A stretch of 43,220 nucleotides of DNA from a virus. Lineage: Duplodnaviria; Heunggongvirae; Uroviricota; Caudoviricetes. The stretch lies in the IMG/VR virus record IMGVR_UViG_2563366806_000003. The stretch is one strand, 5' to 3'. A program made the translations under genes and the position numbers. Shown here one piece after another: positions 5,438-42,844 of the stretch (positions are counted from its first letter, which is position 1; each line of letters begins with the position of its first letter). A model generated the notes under the pieces. That model saw nothing but the letters and a program-made list of their open reading frames with translations, did not search any database and was not told where the DNA came from.

Positions 5438-6262
5438 TCAGGCGGTGAAAGTACCAATAAAGGTTTCTACTTTGCTGTCCTTGAATTTCTCAACAAGCAG
5501 ATCACGAAATTCGTTAGCCATTTCTTCCTGCACCGCCTCCAGCTGAATAATGCGCAGAACCAGTACCGGACGATCGCCAGTGATAATGCTGAGGCGTAAT
5601 TTAAACGGACGTTCTTTCAGACCTTCAAACGGAATGCATTTAAATTCAAATGCCACTGGCATAATGTCTTTGGTCTTCGCTTCGACAGACTCCATCAGGG
5701 AGCGTTTGCCGCTGAAGTCATTATCTTCAAAATCAGCGGTCTGGTTTGCTTCAATCGTGATTTTACGGACCGCCGCAGCCGCTTTTGTTGCCTGAATGGT
5801 GTCACCATTAGCATCAAAGCCCACAAGGTAGTCGGCCCAGTCTTCAATCCATTCTGCCAGTGATTTCTGGGAGTTACGCTCGCCATTAACAGACAACAGA
5901 GCAGAGAACGGTGCTGTCTTTTTCAGTTTGAGAGTGGCGGTGTTATCTGCGTGACCTGGTTCATCAATAGTACCCAGGTTAAGCACACTGACGGCACGCA
6001 TATTATCAGCATCGATAAAGCAGCGGGTGCCTTCATCTGCAAGATCTTTAGAATAACGGGTAAAGTCATCGATGCTGGCAGTGGAAAGCGCACCACGGAA
6101 ACGGAAGCGATTTAAATTAAATTTTTCCAGATCATGAATGCGGAAATTCTCAGGCAATGCCACAGCATCGGCACCAATCTTACTGATAATTTCATTAACA
6201 CCCTGAGCAGAAATAAGGGCATGGATTTGATTAATTGCGGTTGCGTCTAAGTTCTGAGACAT
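5438..6262 (-). CDS. YfdQ-family (DUF2303) phage protein
   Basis: 274-aa ORF of the same length and context as E. coli prophage YfdQ. Confidence 0.6.
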
Positions 6263-7799: not shown

Positions 7800-8453
7800 T
7801 CAAAAATCCATTATTACTTGTTTGACAAGACCAACTATTCTGCAGTTCTCACCGCATTCAATAGTTTTATAGTTAGGATTTAGTGGGACGAGATACCTGT
7901 TCGGCCAGTCCTCAACAAATTTTTTGAGTGTCGCTTCTTGCCCACCATTGATATGGGCAACAACGATTTTTCCGTTAATACACTCTGTATCAATAATATC
8001 TGGCTCTACGATAACGATAGAACCTTCTGGTATCGATGGTGAGCCGAGGGGATTGGTCATTGAATCACCACGGACCCGTAGTGCAAATGCCATTTCTGAT
8101 ACAAGGGCGGTAGTATAAACCCACTCTTCAGCATCTTCTTTCCTGACACCAGGCTCCGTCATTGTCCATGAACCCGCCTGAACCCACGAGATGAGGGGGA
8201 CTTTTTTAACTGCGAATATTTCAGGTTTTAGATTTATCTTTGGTTCAGGCGAGCCTTTTCCGCTAACAAGCCACAGAGGATCGCATTTAAGTGCGTTGGC
8301 TAGGGCTTGAAGGTTGGCTCCATTTGGTTGGTAGTCGTCCTTTTCCCATCCAGTAACCGTGACACGGTTCACACCAGTCAAATCAGCCAGTGCTTGTTGT
8401 GTCAGGTTCAGTTCTTTTCGCCTTTGGCGAATACGATCACTCATGTTCATCAT
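7800..8453 (-). CDS. CI-like prophage repressor (N-terminal XRE-type HTH, C-terminal S24 LexA-like peptidase domain)
   Basis: …LNLTQQALADLTGVNRVTVTGWE… HTH; C-terminal …LRVRGDSMTNP… and …KKF… S24 self-cleavage motifs; divergent from the Cro-like gene with operators between. Confidence 0.85.
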   Translation of the reverse strand: MMNMSDRIRQRRKELNLTQQALADLTGVNRVTVTGWEKDDYQPNGANLQALANALKCDPLWLVSGKGSPEPKINLKPEIFAVKKVPLISWVQAGSWTMTEPGVRKEDAEEWVYTTALVSEMAFALRVRGDSMTNPLGSPSIPEGSIVIVEPDIIDTECINGKIVVAHINGGQEATLKKFVEDWPNRYLVPLNPNYKTIECGENCRIVGLVKQVIMDF

Positions 8454-10644: not shown

Positions 10645-11135
10645 TCATGAGTCTTTTGAATGAAGTTCAGAAATTCATTGAAGCCCATCCGGGGTGTACT
10701 TCCGGAGACATTGCGGATGCTTTTGCAGGTTACTCACGGCAGCGCGTTCTGCAGTCAGCAAGCAAGTTACGTCAGAGTGGGCGTGTGGCTCACCGTTGTG
10801 AAGGAGATACACGCAGACATTTCTCGCGCCTGACTGAGAGAGCGCAGGAGCCGGAACCACAACCAGTTTGTGAAACCAGACCTGTGCGCAAGTTCTATGT
10901 CGGCACTAACGCCCCCCGGGTGATTTTGTGCCTGACCCGCCAGGCTGAAGAACTGGAGTCGAGGGGCTTATACCGTCGTGCTGCAACGGTGTGGATGGAG
11001 GCATTCCGTGAAAGCCACTCCCAGCCAGAACGAAACAATTTTCTGGCGCGTCGTGAACGGTGTTTACGGAAAAGCAGCAAGCGCGCTGCATCGGGTGAAG
11101 AGTGGTATCTGTCAGGGAATTACGTGGGGGCTTAA
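10641..11135 (+). CDS. PerC-family-like regulatory protein with N-terminal extension
   Basis: C-terminal …AEELESRGLYRRAATVWMEAF… matches the PerC signature as recalled. Confidence 0.45.
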   Translation: MIMSLLNEVQKFIEAHPGCTSGDIADAFAGYSRQRVLQSASKLRQSGRVAHRCEGDTRRHFSRLTERAQEPEPQPVCETRPVRKFYVGTNAPRVILCLTRQAEELESRGLYRRAATVWMEAFRESHSQPERNNFLARRERCLRKSSKRAASGEEWYLSGNYVGA

Positions 11136-11461
11136 TGACTACGTTAACTCAATGCCAGCAGCAGGTGCTGGATATGCTGATTTCTTATCAGAAAGAACGT
11201 GGCTTCCCGCCAACCAATCAGGAGGTGGCAACCATGCTGGGATACCGTTCAGTGAATGCAGCGGTGGAGCATCTTCGCGCACTGGAGAAAAAAGGCGTCA
11301 TCACGATAAAGCGTGGCGTGGCCCGGGGCATCACGCTTCATACCGCGGTGAAGGACGACGACAGCGAGGCGGTCGGGATTATCCGCGCACTGCTTGCCGG
11401 TGAGGCAAACGCCAGGCTGCGTGCAGCCCACTGGTTACATGAGAGGGGCCTGAAAGTATGA
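11135..11461 (+). CDS. LexA N-terminal DNA-binding-domain-only protein (winged HTH, no S24 peptidase domain)
   Basis: LTQCQQQVLDMLISYQKERGFPPTNQEVATMLGYRSVNAAVEHLRALEKKGVITIKRGVARGITL aligns residue-by-residue with the E. coli LexA N-terminal domain; protein ends after about 108 aa. Confidence 0.65.
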   Translation: MTTLTQCQQQVLDMLISYQKERGFPPTNQEVATMLGYRSVNAAVEHLRALEKKGVITIKRGVARGITLHTAVKDDDSEAVGIIRALLAGEANARLRAAHWLHERGLKV

Positions 11462-14499: not shown

Positions 14500-14544
14500 T
14501 TTCCCAACGATGGGCTTTGTATGTCTACCGTTGATAAGATTTAG

Positions 14545-14571
14545 GAACCCGCCACTGAGCGGGTTTTTTGT
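14545..14571 (+). terminator. tR'-like intrinsic terminator (Q-antiterminated)
   Basis: acccgc-cactga-gcgggt hairpin followed by T6, about 65 nt downstream of the late promoter. Confidence 0.7.
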
Positions 14572-15045: not shown

Positions 15046-16098
15046 ATGAAAAATACTGTAAAAATAAACAGTGTTGATTTAATCAACGCTGATTGCCTGC
15101 ATTTTATTCAGTCCCTGCCTGATGATTCCATTGACCTGATTGTTACCGATCCGCCTTACTTCAAGGTGAAACCTAACGGTTGGGACAATCAGTGGAAAGG
15201 GGACGAAGATTACCTTAAGTGGCTGGACCACTGTCTGGCCCAGTTCTGGCGGGTGTTGAAACCTGCCGGAAGCCTTTACCTGTTCTGTGGGCATCGCCTG
15301 GCATCTGATATTGAGATCATGATGCGTGAACGTTTCAACGTGCTTAACCATATCATCTGGGCGAAGCCGTCCGGACGTTGGAATGGGTGTAATAAAGAAA
15401 GTCTGCGCGCATATTTTCCTGCCACAGAGCGCGTTCTGTTTGCTGAACATTACCAGGGGCCATATCGCGGCAAAAGTGACGGCTATGCGGCAAAAGAAAG
15501 GGAACTCAAACAGCACATAATGGCACCGCTGATATCGTATTTCAGGGATGCTCGTGCCGAACTGGGTATAACGGCAAAACAAATTGCCGAAGCCACAGGT
15601 AAGAAAAATATGGTTTCCCACTGGTTTGGTGCCAGTCAGTGGCAGTTGCCGAATGAGGCTGACTATCGGAAGTTACAGGCACTGTTTTCCCGTATAGCGG
15701 CAGAGAAGTTTCAGGAACAACAACTGGAACAACCACACCACCAGCTGGTGGCATCTTATGATTCACTGAATCGCAAATATTCTGAATTGCTGGATGAGTT
15801 TAAATCTCTCCGGCGCTATTTCTCCGTATCAGTTTCCGTGCCTTATACCGATGTCTGGACGCATAAGCCCGTTCAGTTCTATCCGGGTAAACATCCGTGC
15901 GAGAAACCGGCGGATATGCTCCGGCAAATAATCAATGCCAGTAGTCGACCTGGTGATCTGGTTGCTGATTTCTTTATGGGATCCGGTTCCACAATAAAAG
16001 CAGCAATGGCGCTGGGGCGTCGGGCGTTAGGTGTTGAACTTGAGTCAGAGCGGTTTAATCAGACGGTGAAAGAGGTAAGTGAACTGGTGGGGAAATAA
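15046..16098 (+). CDS. Orphan DNA N6-adenine/N4-cytosine methyltransferase (beta-class)
   Basis: DPPY motif (…IVTDPPYF…) near the N-terminus and FxGxG (…DFFMGSGST…) near the C-terminus; no adjacent restriction endonuclease. Confidence 0.8.
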   Translation: MKNTVKINSVDLINADCLHFIQSLPDDSIDLIVTDPPYFKVKPNGWDNQWKGDEDYLKWLDHCLAQFWRVLKPAGSLYLFCGHRLASDIEIMMRERFNVLNHIIWAKPSGRWNGCNKESLRAYFPATERVLFAEHYQGPYRGKSDGYAAKERELKQHIMAPLISYFRDARAELGITAKQIAEATGKKNMVSHWFGASQWQLPNEADYRKLQALFSRIAAEKFQEQQLEQPHHQLVASYDSLNRKYSELLDEFKSLRRYFSVSVSVPYTDVWTHKPVQFYPGKHPCEKPADMLRQIINASSRPGDLVADFFMGSGSTIKAAMALGRRALGVELESERFNQTVKEVSELVGK

Positions 16099-38628: not shown

Positions 38629-38683
38629 ATGCAGAAATAGCGCGCAAATGGCATCGTTCCTGTTTTTGTCAGGAGGAGCTATC

Positions 38684-39240
38684 ATGCTTATTGGCTATGT
38701 TCGCGTATCAACAAATGACCAGAACACCGATCTACAACGTAATGCGTTGAACTGTGCAGGATGTGAGCTGATTTTTGAAGACAAGATAAGCGGTACAAAG
38801 TCCGACAGACCAGGACTGAAAAAGCTGCTCAGGACATTATCGGCAGGTGACACGCTGGTGGTCTGGAAACTGGACCGACTGGGGCGCAGTATGCGGCATC
38901 TTGTCGTGCTGGTGGAAGAGTTGCGCGAACGTGGCGTTAATTTTCGCAGCCTGACGGATGCTATTGATACCAGCACACCAATGGGGCGCTTTTTCTTTCA
39001 TGTGATGGGTGCCCTGGCTGAAATGGAGCGAGAGTTTATTGTCGAACGTACTAGGGCGGCTTTGCCGCAGCACGACAAGAAGGGAGGAACGGTGGGCGAA
39101 AGCCAAAGCTGACAGTAGAACAATGGGGGCAGGCTGGCAGGTTGATTGAATCGGGAATATATCAGCAGCAAGTCGCACTGATTTATGATCTGGGTATTTC
39201 AACGGTGTATAAAAAATTCCCTGTAGCAAGTAAACCATAG
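38684..39240 (+). pseudogene. Gin/Pin/Hin-family serine DNA invertase, disrupted by a single-base frameshift
   Basis: MLIGYVRVSTNDQNTDLQ… catalytic domain runs to 39112; the HTH domain (GRKPKLTVEQWGQAGRLIE…VALIYDLGISTVYKKFP) continues in another frame to 39240; join point at agggcggctttgcc (about 39052-39062) consistent with loss of one G. Confidence 0.75.
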
Positions 39241-39266: not shown

Positions 39267-39962
39267 TTATGCACTATTTTTAGGTCTTGTAACCCGAGGT
39301 GGGAGTTGTTTGGTTATATGTTCAAGTGATTTTTTGCCCAAGATAGTTCTTTGGACAAAACTTTCTATAGCTTCTAGCATTTGTTCGAACTCACTTTTAT
39401 TCGGGCTCCAACTGCGATGTGCGGCGGCGTTTCCTGCATCAATTACTGAAGATATAACGCATGCCTCAGTGTCGCCTATGACTCCATCTTGTTTTAATTT
39501 TTCAACTTTTTCACCAAGCGGCAAACCGGGGTGAATTTGTAACAGTTCAGCAGTTCGATCAAAAATCGTCCGTAAACCGATGGACGAAAGAATGAAATGG
39601 TCAGAAGTATATGAAGAATACATTTCATTAAATATTTGAAAGAGCTGACGATCAACTGATTCAAGCTTGGATAACCATATCGGAGCTTGAAATGTTTCAG
39701 CGGCAGGATAGGTAGTGATCATATCTATAGGCGTTTCTACAAATTCACCATCACGATATTCGTGGGTAGTATGCTCACTGAAGTGTTCGTTGTGGTGATA
39801 GAAGACAGTATCACAGCCATTGCATTGGAGTAGGTGATGGTAATGGTACCCATAAACTGGATATTGGGAATCCTCCCAGCTAGTGGTTAGCTTCCCATGC
39901 ACAGTGCAGTTACGTAACCCACCGCATGTAGGGCAAAGAGCCTTGAGTATTTCCTTTTTCAT
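39267..39962 (-). CDS. Hypothetical Zn-ribbon protein (231 aa), candidate defence/exclusion cargo; function not recognised
   Basis: AT-rich ORF antisense to the tail operon; N-terminal CPTCGG…C and CNGC cysteine pairs; the rest matches nothing I recognise. Confidence 0.55.
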   Translation of the reverse strand: MKKEILKALCPTCGGLRNCTVHGKLTTSWEDSQYPVYGYHYHHLLQCNGCDTVFYHHNEHFSEHTTHEYRDGEFVETPIDMITTYPAAETFQAPIWLSKLESVDRQLFQIFNEMYSSYTSDHFILSSIGLRTIFDRTAELLQIHPGLPLGEKVEKLKQDGVIGDTEACVISSVIDAGNAAAHRSWSPNKSEFEQMLEAIESFVQRTILGKKSLEHITKQLPPRVTRPKNSA

Positions 39963-40029
39963 AAAGTCTCTGATTCTATATGTAGGTTAAGACCACTATT
40001 AGCTATACGGACCTAATAATCAATCGTGT

Positions 40030-40056
40030 GCAGATACAAAAAAGCCCGTATAGCGG
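40030..40056 (-). terminator. Intrinsic terminator between the dinI-like gene and the 231-aa gene
   Basis: cccgctatacggg hairpin followed by a T-run on the minus strand. Confidence 0.45.
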
Positions 40057-40310
40057 GATTTCATGTCACTAAGGGCCGCGGCTACTTTGCGTATCTTTTT
40101 TGTCTTCTCACCGTCTGGCCGGTATTTTGCTGAGACTGCTTATTTCCAGTTTTTACTAGTGCTGTACTGGTACTGCCCAATCATGATTGGTGGGGGACGG
40201 AGTTGAGACCGCAGCCACGTCGTATGCAAGAACGCGCTGCGGTTGGCTGGTGAACTTTCGATAGTGCGAGTATTGAATGATTTCCAGCCGTTACAGATTT
40301 TACGTGTTTA

Positions 40311-40559
40311 TTAGTGAACAAACCACTCGTCAGCAGATTCCCAGGTATCTTTCAGAGTCTCCTGAACAAAAGTTTTTGCAGAATCCTTATCTGCGGTGCG
40401 TGTAACAGAAAGGCCATCATTGCTGGTGGCTTTTACTAACACCTCAACATCGTCATAACGCTTACTGATGCGTCGGGTTAATTCTTCCTTTAACGCATCC
40501 ACAGCACCGGTTGGCATTTTAGTCATTTTTTCTTTGGCTATGCAGATTTCAATACGCAT
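40311..40559 (-). CDS. dinI: DinI-family protein
   Basis: MRIEICIAK…, and C-terminal …[15 protein letters not shown]… match host DinI; two LexA boxes immediately upstream. Confidence 0.85.
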
Positions 40560-40572
40560 AAAAGTCCCTCCA

Positions 40573-40620
40573 TACTGTGTTTGTATACAGCATTATTTTT
40601 AACTGTATGGATAAACAGTG
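40573..40620. promoter_or_regulatory. Two tandem LexA (SOS) boxes upstream of the dinI-like gene
   Basis: tACTGTgtttgtatACAGca (40573-40592) and aaCTGTatggataaACAGtg (40601-40620), both CTGT-N8-ACAG. Confidence 0.7.
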
Positions 40621-41718
40621 TCAAGAGGTCTTATTTCTGCTCCTTTGGAGCTCTTCAAAACGATTATGTAAAGATTTCGGATACAGTTCGGTATATACCT
40701 GCCATAGCACGTTTAATGAACGATGCCCTGTAACTTGGGCGACTTCCTCAATACTAAAACCAGCCTCAAATAAGCGACTTGCCCCTTCTCTACGCAAATC
40801 ATGGTATCGCAGATCCTTAATACCTAATTTGCTTCTTACTCTCTGAAATCCCGCAGTAACAGAAGTGCTGTTATATGGAAAAATGAATTCCGATTTTTGG
40901 GGCTGTCGTTGGACGATATCCCAGGCTTCCCCAAGCAAGGCTACTTTCATGTGGTTGCCTTCCTTTTTGCGTGGATCTTTCCTGTCTCTTACGAGTATAG
41001 ATTTTTGTTCCTGGTCGAGATCTTCCCATCGTAACCGGCATACTTCTCCGATTCGCATACAGGACCATACAGAAAATTTGAGGATATCAACGAACGGAAT
41101 TTTTGAGCATTTATGAGTAGATCGTTGTTGAAGGCCTGCAATGAGCATGTCCAGTTCATCAGATGCTGGTCTACGATTACGACGGTTTGATTTACCAATC
41201 AAACCAAGTTTAAGTAGATATGGGCGAGCGCTTTTCGCCGGGTTTGATGTGTAATTAATTCCGTATACAGGTTTGGCCGCATCCAGAACACTGCCAAGAT
41301 AACTAACATCGTGGCTGACTGTTGCAGGACCTGCACCAGCGTTGTTTCTTAGCCTGCAATGTTCAATTACGTCATTTTCTGTCAGTTCAGATAGTTTGAT
41401 CGCGGAGATGTCACTATCCATAAGCAGTTCCAGCACATATCTTTTAGTACGGCCTGCTTTACCTCCGGCATTTGGGTCATTTAAATATTTGTGTAGTAAG
41501 TCACGGACTGTAAGTCCGTCAACTGCATTTGATGATGGAATACCATATAGATCTAATTCCATCACTTTCTGTGTGCCCCATGTTTTGGCATGAGCATGTT
41601 TAGGGAATGTTTTGCTTTCCCTGTAAGTGATAACACCTTTTTCTTTGATAATCACATTACAGCGATAGCGTGGTGTGCCATCGGATTTTAGTCGTTTCTC
41701 TATGTTATAGTACGCCAT
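40621..41718 (-). CDS. int: Tyrosine integrase (dusA-specific type)
   Basis: 365 aa with C-terminal catalytic region (…HDLRREGASRLFEAG…VTGHRSLNVLWQVY…); adjacent and divergent to dusA. Confidence 0.9.
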   Translation of the reverse strand: MAYYNIEKRLKSDGTPRYRCNVIIKEKGVITYRESKTFPKHAHAKTWGTQKVMELDLYGIPSSNAVDGLTVRDLLHKYLNDPNAGGKAGRTKRYVLELLMDSDISAIKLSELTENDVIEHCRLRNNAGAGPATVSHDVSYLGSVLDAAKPVYGINYTSNPAKSARPYLLKLGLIGKSNRRNRRPASDELDMLIAGLQQRSTHKCSKIPFVDILKFSVWSCMRIGEVCRLRWEDLDQEQKSILVRDRKDPRKKEGNHMKVALLGEAWDIVQRQPQKSEFIFPYNSTSVTAGFQRVRSKLGIKDLRYHDLRREGASRLFEAGFSIEEVAQVTGHRSLNVLWQVYTELYPKSLHNRFEELQRSRNKTS

Positions 41719-41806: not shown

Positions 41807-42844
41807 ATGCACGATAATCATGAAACACAAAAAATTAATCAAACCAGCGTGATGCCTGAAAAAACTGGTGTTTACTGGAATTCTCGGTTTAGCATTGCTC
41901 CTATGCTCGACTGGACGGACAGACATTGCCGCTATTTCTTGCGTCTGCTTTCCCGCAATACGTTGCTGTATACTGAAATGGTAACTACAGGGGCGATTAT
42001 TCACGGTAAAGGTGATTACCTGGCGTATAGTGAAGAAGAACATCCGGTAGCGTTGCAACTCGGCGGTAGCGATCCGGCGGCGCTGGCGCAGTGTGCGAAG
42101 CTGGCAGAAGCGCGTGGATATGATGAGATCAACCTGAATGTCGGCTGCCCGTCTGACCGGGTGCAGAACGGCATGTTTGGTGCGTGTCTGATGGGTAATG
42201 CGCAGCTGGTTGCCGACTGCGTGAAAGCGATGCGCGATGTGGTGTCGATTCCGGTGACGGTGAAAACGCGTATTGGCATCGACGACCAGGACAGCTATGA
42301 ATTTCTCTGCGATTTCATCAACACCGTTTCCGGCAAAGGCGAGTGTGAGATGTTCATCATCCATGCACGTAAAGCCTGGCTTTCGGGGTTAAGTCCGAAA
42401 GAAAACCGTGAGATCCCGCCGCTCGATTATCCGCGTGTGTATCAACTGAAGCGTGACTTTCCGCATCTGACAATGTCGATTAACGGTGGTATCAAGTCGC
42501 TGGAAGAGGCCAAAGCACACCTGCAACATATGGATGGCGTGATGGTCGGGCGCGAGGCGTATCAGAATCCGGGTATTCTGGCGGCGGTAGACCGGGAGAT
42601 CTTTGGTTCCTCGGATATCGATGCCGATCCGGTGGCGGTAGTGCGCGCCATGTATCCGTACATTGAGCGTGAACTCAGCCAGGGGACGTATCTCGGTCAT
42701 ATTACCCGGCATATGTTGGGCTTGTTCCAGGGTATTCCTGGCGCGCGGCAGTGGCGGCGTTATTTAAGTGAAAACGCCCATAAAGCGGGTGCAGACATTA
42801 ATGTGCTGGAACACGCGCTCAAACTGGTGGCGGATAAGCGTTAA
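41807..42844 (+). CDS. dusA: tRNA-dihydrouridine(20/20a) synthase DusA; first ~32 codons supplied by the prophage
   Basis: 345 aa Dus-family protein; N-terminus [35 protein letters not shown] differs from the displaced native N-terminus at 1071-1175. Confidence 0.9.

Follow-up and report, generated by a model that had tools for sequence, protein, structure and literature searches.

The window analysed here, the complete stretch of 43,220 nucleotides, represents a lambdoid prophage of the mEp460/SfV-like kind that has inserted into the 5' end of E. coli dusA. The prophage spans about positions 1116-41867, with dusA and pspG lying beyond, as annotated at an identical locus. An exact repeat search placed the attR core at 41852-41867 in the 5' end of dusA, as a 16-bp direct repeat of 1116-1131. 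[quoted passage not shown] The int gene (40621-41718, minus strand) was recognized by its Pfam Phage_integrase match and by the RefSeq and mEp460 annotation as a tyrosine integrase of the dusA-integrating type. It is the upstream neighbour of dinI, and it ends directly at the distal of two LexA boxes, in agreement with the sequence-only reading of this DNA, which had placed dinI next to the integrase. A CI-type repressor is encoded at 7800-8453 (minus strand) with the Pfam domains HTH_3 (E 1.1e-15) and Peptidase_S24 (E 3.7e-25), and its gene adjoins those of a P22-type Cro and a CII-like protein. Because this repressor carries a Peptidase_S24 domain, the prophage should be induced by the lambda route, that is by RecA-stimulated self-cleavage of the repressor.

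The open reading frame at 40311-40559 (minus strand) starts with ATG and encodes a protein of 82 amino acids. Its assignment to the phage-type DinI subfamily draws on the open reading frame list, Pfam, the PDB match and an AlphaFold model. The Pfam family DinI (PF06183) was matched with 71 bits against a cut-off of 24.2, and residues 16-80 covered the complete profile (1-63 of 63). With phmmer, the protein aligned over its full length to E. coli DinI (1GHH/7YWA, E 3.8e-13), with which it shares 49% identity. The AlphaFold2 model, calculated from an input alignment of 15 subfamily members, had a pLDDT of 75.7. It revealed a small alpha/beta fold with a long C-terminal helix, as is found in the DinI family (predicted elements E2-8, H9-14, H19-32, E39-45, E50-55 and H59-80). 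A search of the PDB with this model returned 1GHH (TM 0.75) and 7YWA (TM 0.75-0.78, rmsd 2.5 Å) as the sole significant matches; the next match had an E value of 0.035. The protein is thus almost certainly a member of the DinI family, and the description as DinI-like was borne out by the profile, the structural match and the predicted fold alike. Against the NCBIfam DinI equivalog NF007893 it scored 72.8 bits, below the cut-off of 111. Judged by these alignments, it is a member of a paralogous, phage-type DinI subfamily and not a copy of the host gene. The coding sequence itself is kept across genera.

In the cryo-EM structure, DinI residues L13, L21, W71, W77 and F78 form a pocket for RecA F203, and E24, E69 and D76 pair with RecA K232/R243/K245 (PMC9926225). 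The aligned residues in the phage protein are M15, L23, W73, W79 and F80 for the pocket and E26, D71 and E78 for the charged pairs. At seven of the eight positions the residue is identical or its charge is kept; the exception is L13, which is replaced by methionine. Since these contact residues are kept and the predicted fold is that of DinI, the phage protein probably docks in the RecA groove. Each DinI spans five RecA protomers, and LexA, UmuD and lambda CI share the groove surface with it (PMC9926225). A review describes DinI that is stoichiometric with RecA as stabilizing the filaments and as mainly a positive modulator; it describes inhibition, both of the UmuD cleavage induced by RecA and of recombinase activity, for high DinI concentrations only (PMC6590174). 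The protein had been called an inhibitor of the RecA coprotease in the earlier reading. The term covers one side of DinI only and is overstated, as DinI stabilizes filaments at stoichiometric levels (PMC6590174).

The gap between the int stop codon and the dinI start codon comprises 61 bp and holds both LexA boxes. On the minus strand it reads CTC-TTGACA-CTGTTTATCCATACAG-TT-AAAAAT-AATG-CTGTATACAAACACAG-TAT-GGAGGG-ACTTTT-ATG. A sigma-70 scan yielded a match at 10 of 12 positions, with a spacer of 18 nt when AAAAAT is taken as the -10 element. The -35 hexamer TTGACA (40619-40624, minus strand) overlaps the int stop codon at 40621-40623 and forms the left boundary of the cassette. The -10-like AAAAAT (40595-40600, minus strand; alternatively TAAAAA with a 17-nt spacer) lies between the boxes. 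It is a weak match; homologues retain a TAAA(A)AT block rich in A/T. The distal box, O1 (40601-40620, CACTGTTTATCCATACAGTT on the minus strand), fills the spacer between the -35 and -10 elements, its first two bases doubling as the end of the -35 hexamer. The proximal box, O2 (40573-40592, TGCTGTATACAAACACAGTA on the minus strand), is located 13 nt from the ATG; it follows the -10 element after 2 nt and should cover the predicted transcription start. Both boxes were assigned by sequence, index and conservation. A Shine-Dalgarno sequence GGAGGG (40566-40571, minus strand) was identified 6-7 nt before the dinI ATG, and homologous promoters have a purine-rich block where GGAGGG sits. These promoter elements are consensus predictions read from the sequence. 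A terminator between int and dinI is not present, and for this reason transcripts running on from int could lead to dinI expression irrespective of LexA.

The two 20-mers as located in the window, TACTGTGTTTGTATACAGCA at 40573-40592 and AACTGTATGGATAAACAGTG at 40601-40620, are both perfect CTGT-N8-ACAG sites. The near-consensus LexA boxes of the earlier reading are therefore present exactly where it had placed them, and the motif is rare: three matches were found in the 43,220-base window, compared with 0.64 expected from shuffles. We also scored the window with a heterology index, which was symmetrised and trained on 20 E. coli sites and the absolute values of which are approximate. The two dinI boxes had values of 5.75 and 6.29 and a third site at 15054-15073 had a value of 5.2, while the training sites themselves score 2.0-12.3. 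No further position of the window had an index of 12 or below. Compared with TACTGTATATATATACAGTA, which we take to be the enterobacterial LexA operator consensus, the dinI boxes match at 16 and 15 of the 20 positions.

Conservation of the promoter was analyzed with 80 DinI loci fetched from different Enterobacterales species. At least one LexA-like site was present within 160 bp of the start in 73 of them, usually 13-21 nt from the ATG. Two boxes were found in 14 of the 19 loci with a phage-type DinI of 82 amino acids, but in only 2 of the 61 other DinI loci sampled, both of them weak cases (Fisher p = 8e-10). In the phage-type loci, the distance to the ATG is about 41 nt for one box and 13-15 nt for the other. 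We then aligned 14 distinct promoter sequences, from E. coli, Shigella, Pantoea, Trabulsiella, Erwinia, Mixta and two probably mis-binned assemblies. The mean column identity was 73%, and the invariant columns were TTGACACTG and CAG in the O1 region, TG and CAGT in O2, and, in the start codon, the second and third bases (GTG takes the place of ATG in one MAG sequence). Apart from the start codon, this would be the footprint expected of a -35 element plus two LexA operators. E. coli subfamilies with 66-74% protein identity had the same two-box layout and a nearly unchanged promoter. The start-to-start spacing of the boxes is 28 bp in the window and 24-29 bp among the homologues; thus, the order -35/O1/-10/O2 is conserved and the helical phase is not. 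Cooperative, helically phased binding of LexA was considered and is unlikely with a spacing that varies in this way. Since the order is kept while the spacing varies, we infer that LexA blocks the promoter sterically and independently at each box rather than by cooperative binding. Across the loci compared, the tandem operators are a conserved hallmark of the phage-type DinI subfamily.

Downstream of the dinI stop codon follows a structured 3'UTR of 65 nt. An inverted repeat search identified a hairpin GGCUGG...CCAGCC at 40245-40289 (minus strand), the sequence of which is conserved in cassette copies. A second, terminator-type hairpin lies 68 nt after the stop codon (40208-40243, minus strand) and forms the right boundary of the cassette. 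It was assigned by folding (-18.8 kcal/mol) and by covariation, with compensatory changes in 4 of 11 pairs among 12 sequence variants. Together, the two hairpins fold with z = -3.07. The possibility that the 3'UTR belongs to a known RNA family was rejected: an Rfam search of 39900-40750 on both strands returned only a match to CssrB, with 18.6 bits far below the threshold of 76. In most relatives, a U-tract follows the hairpin at 40208-40243 (mEp460 has TTTTTCTTTTT there), and for this reason the hairpin is assigned as an intrinsic terminator in these relatives. The copy in the window has no U-tract; its homology to mEp460 breaks off where the stem ends. Among 80 close copies, about 12 lack the U-tract. 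When the locus was examined for the own promoter and own terminator of a moron, the promoter-like site and the covarying hairpin were present and the U-tract was absent here.

The edges of this unit could be located by comparing copies. On the left, the cassette begins sharply at CCTTGA of the -35 element, behind two different upstream sequences; on the right, at least eight unrelated sequences were found downstream of the hairpin. All of 80 near-identical copies found on viral contigs have kept both boxes. Cassettes of other E. coli prophages occupy the outermost gene position, directly before host DNA (yehU, prfC and others), and are convergent with the tail-fibre genes. The unit of 418 bp matched 3163 of 5426 complete E. 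coli genomes (58%) at 6080 places, with up to 8 copies per genome, and many Stx1 and Stx2 phages carry it as well. The GC profile did not reveal a sharp island at the cassette, which has about 40-48% GC like the adjacent prophage DNA. On this comparative evidence the region appears as a self-contained, putatively LexA-repressed dinI cassette ('moron') that extends from the promoter to the hairpin at 40208-40243. In the window, the hairpin without U-tract is followed by the DUF4145 gene (39267-39962, minus strand, Pfam DUF4145). A scan found no sigma-70-like promoter between dinI and this gene, and DUF4145 is thus possible read-through cargo of the SOS promoter. PADLOC gave no match for the DinI or the DUF4145 protein, and NCBIfam gave none for the DUF4145 protein.

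The closest known counterparts are found in other lambdoid phages. In mEp460 (JQ182728), gp021 is annotated as 'DinI-like protein', the int-dinI region is 97.8% identical at the DNA level and the integrase is of the same dusA type. The mEp460 record annotates a promoter over the same -35 and -10 elements, but not the LexA boxes. The two diverge from the hairpin onward, where mEp460 keeps the U-tract followed by a tail-fibre gene, whereas the window has the DUF4145 gene and the invertase. H0001 of the Stx1 prophage VT1-Sakai (AP000400) also has 82 amino acids, is 94% identical and has the same promoter layout. This record, from around 2000, annotates a promoter and a LexA-bound 'putative SOS box' before H0001; it marks the proximal box only, and the distal box falls within the annotated promoter. 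Like dinI of many Stx1 and Stx2 phages, H0001 is located close to att at the end of the prophage, in convergent orientation to the tail-fibre genes. However, the VT1-Sakai cassette is directly beside attL without an integrase in between, whereas the window has int at this place. Furthermore, both boxes are weaker in copies of the VT1-Sakai type (CTGG...ACAG; approximate heterology index 10-12), and a YkgJ-like gene follows the VT1-Sakai cassette. A literature search for dinI, Stx phages and the SOS box in combination found nothing. The EHEC transcriptome papers report chromosomal dinI only; probes or reads for the near-identical prophage genes were excluded or not listed.

More distant relatives provide the experimental precedent. 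[quoted passage not shown] They belong to a different DinI subfamily (about 43% identity between the Gifsy-2 and the window protein) and have a single box, 19 nt from the ATG, in contrast to the two boxes of the window. Gifsy dinI opens a dinI-antirepressor-irsA operon in the nin region, and the Gifsy repressors are not cleaved, whereas the repressor of the window is of the S24 type. The product of chromosomal dinI in E. coli and other Enterobacterales shares the fold and the residues that contact RecA, and a LexA box precedes the start codon of the gene. E. coli chromosomal DinI has 81 amino acids, and a single strong box lies about 19 nt before its gene. Salmonella chromosomal dinI has an additional site at 42 nt, with a heterology index of 17.6 (PMC8072944). 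[quoted passage not shown] Tum has 146 amino acids, with an antirepressor half fused to a DinI-like half, while the window protein is the DinI domain alone. Because of the precedent in the Gifsy prophages and in chromosomal dinI, together with the sequence of the boxes, we consider LexA control of the cassette highly probable.

Based on these observations, the explanation that we favour by a small margin over an even chance is a LexA-repressed dinI cassette whose product may damp prophage induction. In the unstressed lysogen, two dimers of host LexA would block both the binding of RNA polymerase and the clearance of the start site. Upon DNA damage, RecA would become active, LexA would cleave itself and the cassette would fire independently of the prophage repressor. 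[quoted passage not shown] Speculatively, the extra DinI might add to host DinI, stabilize the filament and occupy the groove. Since lambda CI uses the same groove surface, a groove filled with DinI should exclude the S24-type repressor. Cleavage of slower substrates, such as UmuD and the prophage's own S24-type CI, might thereby be slowed, and brief SOS episodes would not commit the prophage to lysis. Competition between DinI and CI for the groove is plausible, given the S24 domain of the repressor, but its direction is ambiguous, and the damping step taken by itself is tentative, somewhat short of an even chance. As DinI action depends on concentration (PMC6590174), an effect in favour of induction is equally possible. 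Caution is also advised by Gifsy-1 and Gifsy-3, in which deletions of dinI did not affect induction (PMC3121763). Even so, an extra dose of DinI that raises or delays the threshold of induction and limits the processing of UmuD appears the likeliest of the possible roles. The mechanism that the sequence-only reading proposed, feedback of an SOS-controlled inhibitor on repressor cleavage, is thus plausible, and it may even have the wrong sign.

The closest competitor keeps the same LexA-controlled cassette and reverses this sign, in that stabilized filaments would prolong RecA* and allow repressor cleavage to be completed. The filament stabilization at stoichiometric levels (PMC6590174), the five protomers spanned by each DinI (PMC9926225) and the retention of hydrophobic and acidic contact residues by the phage protein would all fit such a role for DinI. 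Against it, lambda CI relies on the groove elements that DinI also uses, so that CI should be excluded from a groove filled with DinI. Non-polar deletions of dinI in Gifsy-1 and Gifsy-3 left induction unchanged, and did not reduce it (PMC3121763). We regard this sign as unlikely, at about one chance in a handful. Rather less credit is given to the notion that the unit is mainly an SOS-inducible promoter for variable downstream cargo, here DUF4145, with dinI as merely the conserved first gene. The loss of the U-tract, shared by the window and about 12 of the 80 close copies, and the lack of a promoter-like site found between dinI and the DUF4145 gene are in line with it, as are the VT1-Sakai record, which names a 'putative promoter of H0001 and H0002', and BP-4795, in which dinI is followed, in the same orientation, by the gene of a putative avirulence protein. 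Moreover, the functionally important gene in Gifsy is the one downstream of dinI (PMC3121763). However, most copies keep the hairpin and the U-tract and are convergent with tail-fibre genes, without a co-oriented gene downstream. The conservation of the dinI coding sequence across genera also argues against a mere promoter unit, and in the window a weak hairpin with T6 (minus strand, near 40040-40060) may stop read-through.

Two further explanations appear very improbable. [quoted passage not shown] The window did not reveal such a module. Searching it completely by tblastn with the GftA-like and IrsA-like proteins of Gifsy-2 gave best E values of 0.073 and 0.099, elsewhere in the window, so that homologues of GftA/IrsA are absent (E > 0.07), and the Gifsy-type operon was rejected. 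A fusion of the Tum type was rejected as well, as the DinI alignment covers the 82-aa protein end to end, leaving a DinI domain only, and the upstream neighbour is the integrase. The covarying hairpin 68 nt past the dinI stop codon, the S24 self-cleavage domain of the prophage repressor and the low identity to Gifsy-2 DinI (only about 43%) also stand against an antirepressor module. That the two palindromes are not LexA operators but sequences of chance or structural origin is equally hard to credit. In favour of chance, one of the three matches in the window lies within protein-coding DNA, where such a motif may turn up at random. Nevertheless, two perfect sites 28 bp apart in a 61-bp gap contrast with the 0.64 matches expected per 43 kb, the half-sites are invariant while the remaining promoter drifts, and 73 of the 80 Enterobacterales DinI loci have at least one box at the same place.

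The favoured dinI cassette is real but ordinary: it is widespread among lambdoid prophages and had already been annotated there, and on the genome comparisons the arrangement is not special to this prophage. Records of relatives already annotated the gene, the promoter and one SOS box, and work on Salmonella had shown that LexA controls prophage dinI genes. Among the few fresh points are the tandem operators as a mark of the phage-type subfamily and, modestly, the defined edges of the cassette. Its co-residence with an S24 repressor, a protein consisting of a LexA DNA-binding domain only and a third conserved LexA box is a modest addition. If phage DinI alters RecA-dependent cleavage of the repressor, the induction of Shiga-toxin phages and antibiotic-triggered lysis would be influenced. 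Matches to the cassette were found in 58% of the complete E. coli genomes, many of which have multiple copies, and Stx1 and Stx2 phages carry it too.

The LexA-like protein just mentioned is encoded in the nin region at 11135-11461 (plus strand) and has 108 amino acids. The earlier reading had described this gene as LexA-DBD-only, which was confirmed: the product matched LexA_DNA_bind over the full profile (1-65 of 65, E 2.9e-19) and had no S24 domain. It aligned to residues 2-70 of 1LEA (E 6e-16) with S39, N41, A42 and E45 identical, and these are the base-contacting residues of LexA in LexA-DNA structures. Because they are identical, it is a reasonable inference that the protein can bind the same boxes. 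The gene was found in 61 phage records and is common in SfV, SfII and Stx2c-type phages, where it is annotated as LexA-like. PADLOC gave only a weak, irrelevant match for this protein, and a search of the literature for phage LexA-DBD-only proteins found nothing relevant.

These parts might act together and wire the prophage into the LexA network at several points. We consider this improbable. Host LexA would then hold three conserved operators in the lysogen, two at dinI and one inside the 5' end of a methylase gene. DinI, transiently in the RecA groove, would set the induction threshold, also for co-resident prophages with S24-type repressors, and its dose would sum over up to 8 copies of the cassette per genome. 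After lytic commitment, the early-expressed, non-cleavable LexA-DBD protein would re-occupy SOS boxes, namely those that host LexA can no longer cover.

The third LexA box itself came as a surprise. It was assigned by motif, index and conservation and lies at 15054-15073, within codons 3-9 of a DNA methylase gene of the late region (15046-16098). We compared this site in 6 homologues with 68-100% DNA identity. The box, ACTGT-N8-(A/C)CAGT, was invariant in all of them, synonymous sites included, while the neighbouring codons varied.

The predicted LexA boxes of the window are not confined to the dinI promoter. A third predicted box, a perfect match (TACTGTAAAAATAAACAGTG), was found at 15054-15073, where it occupies codons 3-9 of an N6/N4 DNA methylase gene (15046-16098) in the late region. 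This box sits 3' of Q, a pR'-like promoter and a terminator (~14540-14570). Its sequence was compared among six methylase homologues from E. coli, Providencia and Yersinia phages. Across these homologues, which share 68-100% DNA identity, the ACTGT-N8-(A/C)CAGT pattern was unchanged. The synonymous positions of the box were also invariant, and the neighbouring codons differed.

A potential ligand of such sites is encoded by a nin-region gene that has a PerC-like gene and rusA as its neighbours. The gene at 11135-11461 (plus strand) specifies a protein of 108 aa that consists of the LexA N-terminal DNA-binding domain and a tail of ~40 aa, and that lacks an S24 self-cleavage domain. Identity was observed at the positions aligned to LexA S39, N41, A42 and E45. 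This protein might bind SOS boxes as a ligand that cannot be cleaved. It was found in 61 phage records, including SfV, SfII, SfIV and Stx2c phages, where the existing annotation describes it as LexA-like and nothing more.

The 3' end of the minus-strand dinI transcript was also analyzed. The 3'UTR (65 nt, 40245-40310) contains a GGCUGG...CCAGCC hairpin and is conserved to the same degree as the coding sequence among copies of the dinI cassette, that is the promoter, gene, 3'UTR and terminator-type hairpin. Joint folding of 3'UTR and terminator hairpin resulted in z = -3.07. A search of the 3'UTR against Rfam gave no family match. The U-tract of the terminator hairpin was lost at a recombination junction (region 40195-40245).

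The minus-strand gene that comes next after this hairpin (39267-39962) encodes a DUF4145 protein of 231 aa with an N-terminal CxxC motif, which had no match in PADLOC or NCBIfam. Since no recognisable promoter was found upstream of this gene, it may be transcribed from the predicted SOS promoter of dinI. In phage BP-4795 (locus L164, 248-1908) the dinI cassette is followed by a same-strand gene for a putative avirulence protein, and in VT1-Sakai (locus L165, 1501-2106) by one for a YkgJ-like protein. Thus SOS-linked expression of cargo genes placed after the cassette is conceivable.

Enterobacterial-type dinI loci with predicted LexA boxes were also retrieved under labels of unrelated taxa, namely a Chryseobacterium-labelled assembly (L087), a Saccharibacteria MAG (L090), a Wohlfahrtiimonas MAG (L091) and Vagococcus (L132). 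These probably represent contamination or mis-binning.

The prophage ends are marked by a 16-bp direct repeat, ATGCCTGAAAAAACTG, at 1116-1131 and 41852-41867 within the dusA 5' end, and the prophage provides a replacement dusA 5' end (41807-41851). Adjoining the tail-fibre segments, a Hin/Gin-type DNA invertase gene (38648-39240, plus strand) appears frameshifted. The region contains a 154-aa ORF with the Resolvase domain, then a separate ORF of 32 aa, and in an identical RefSeq locus the recombinase is annotated as frameshifted.
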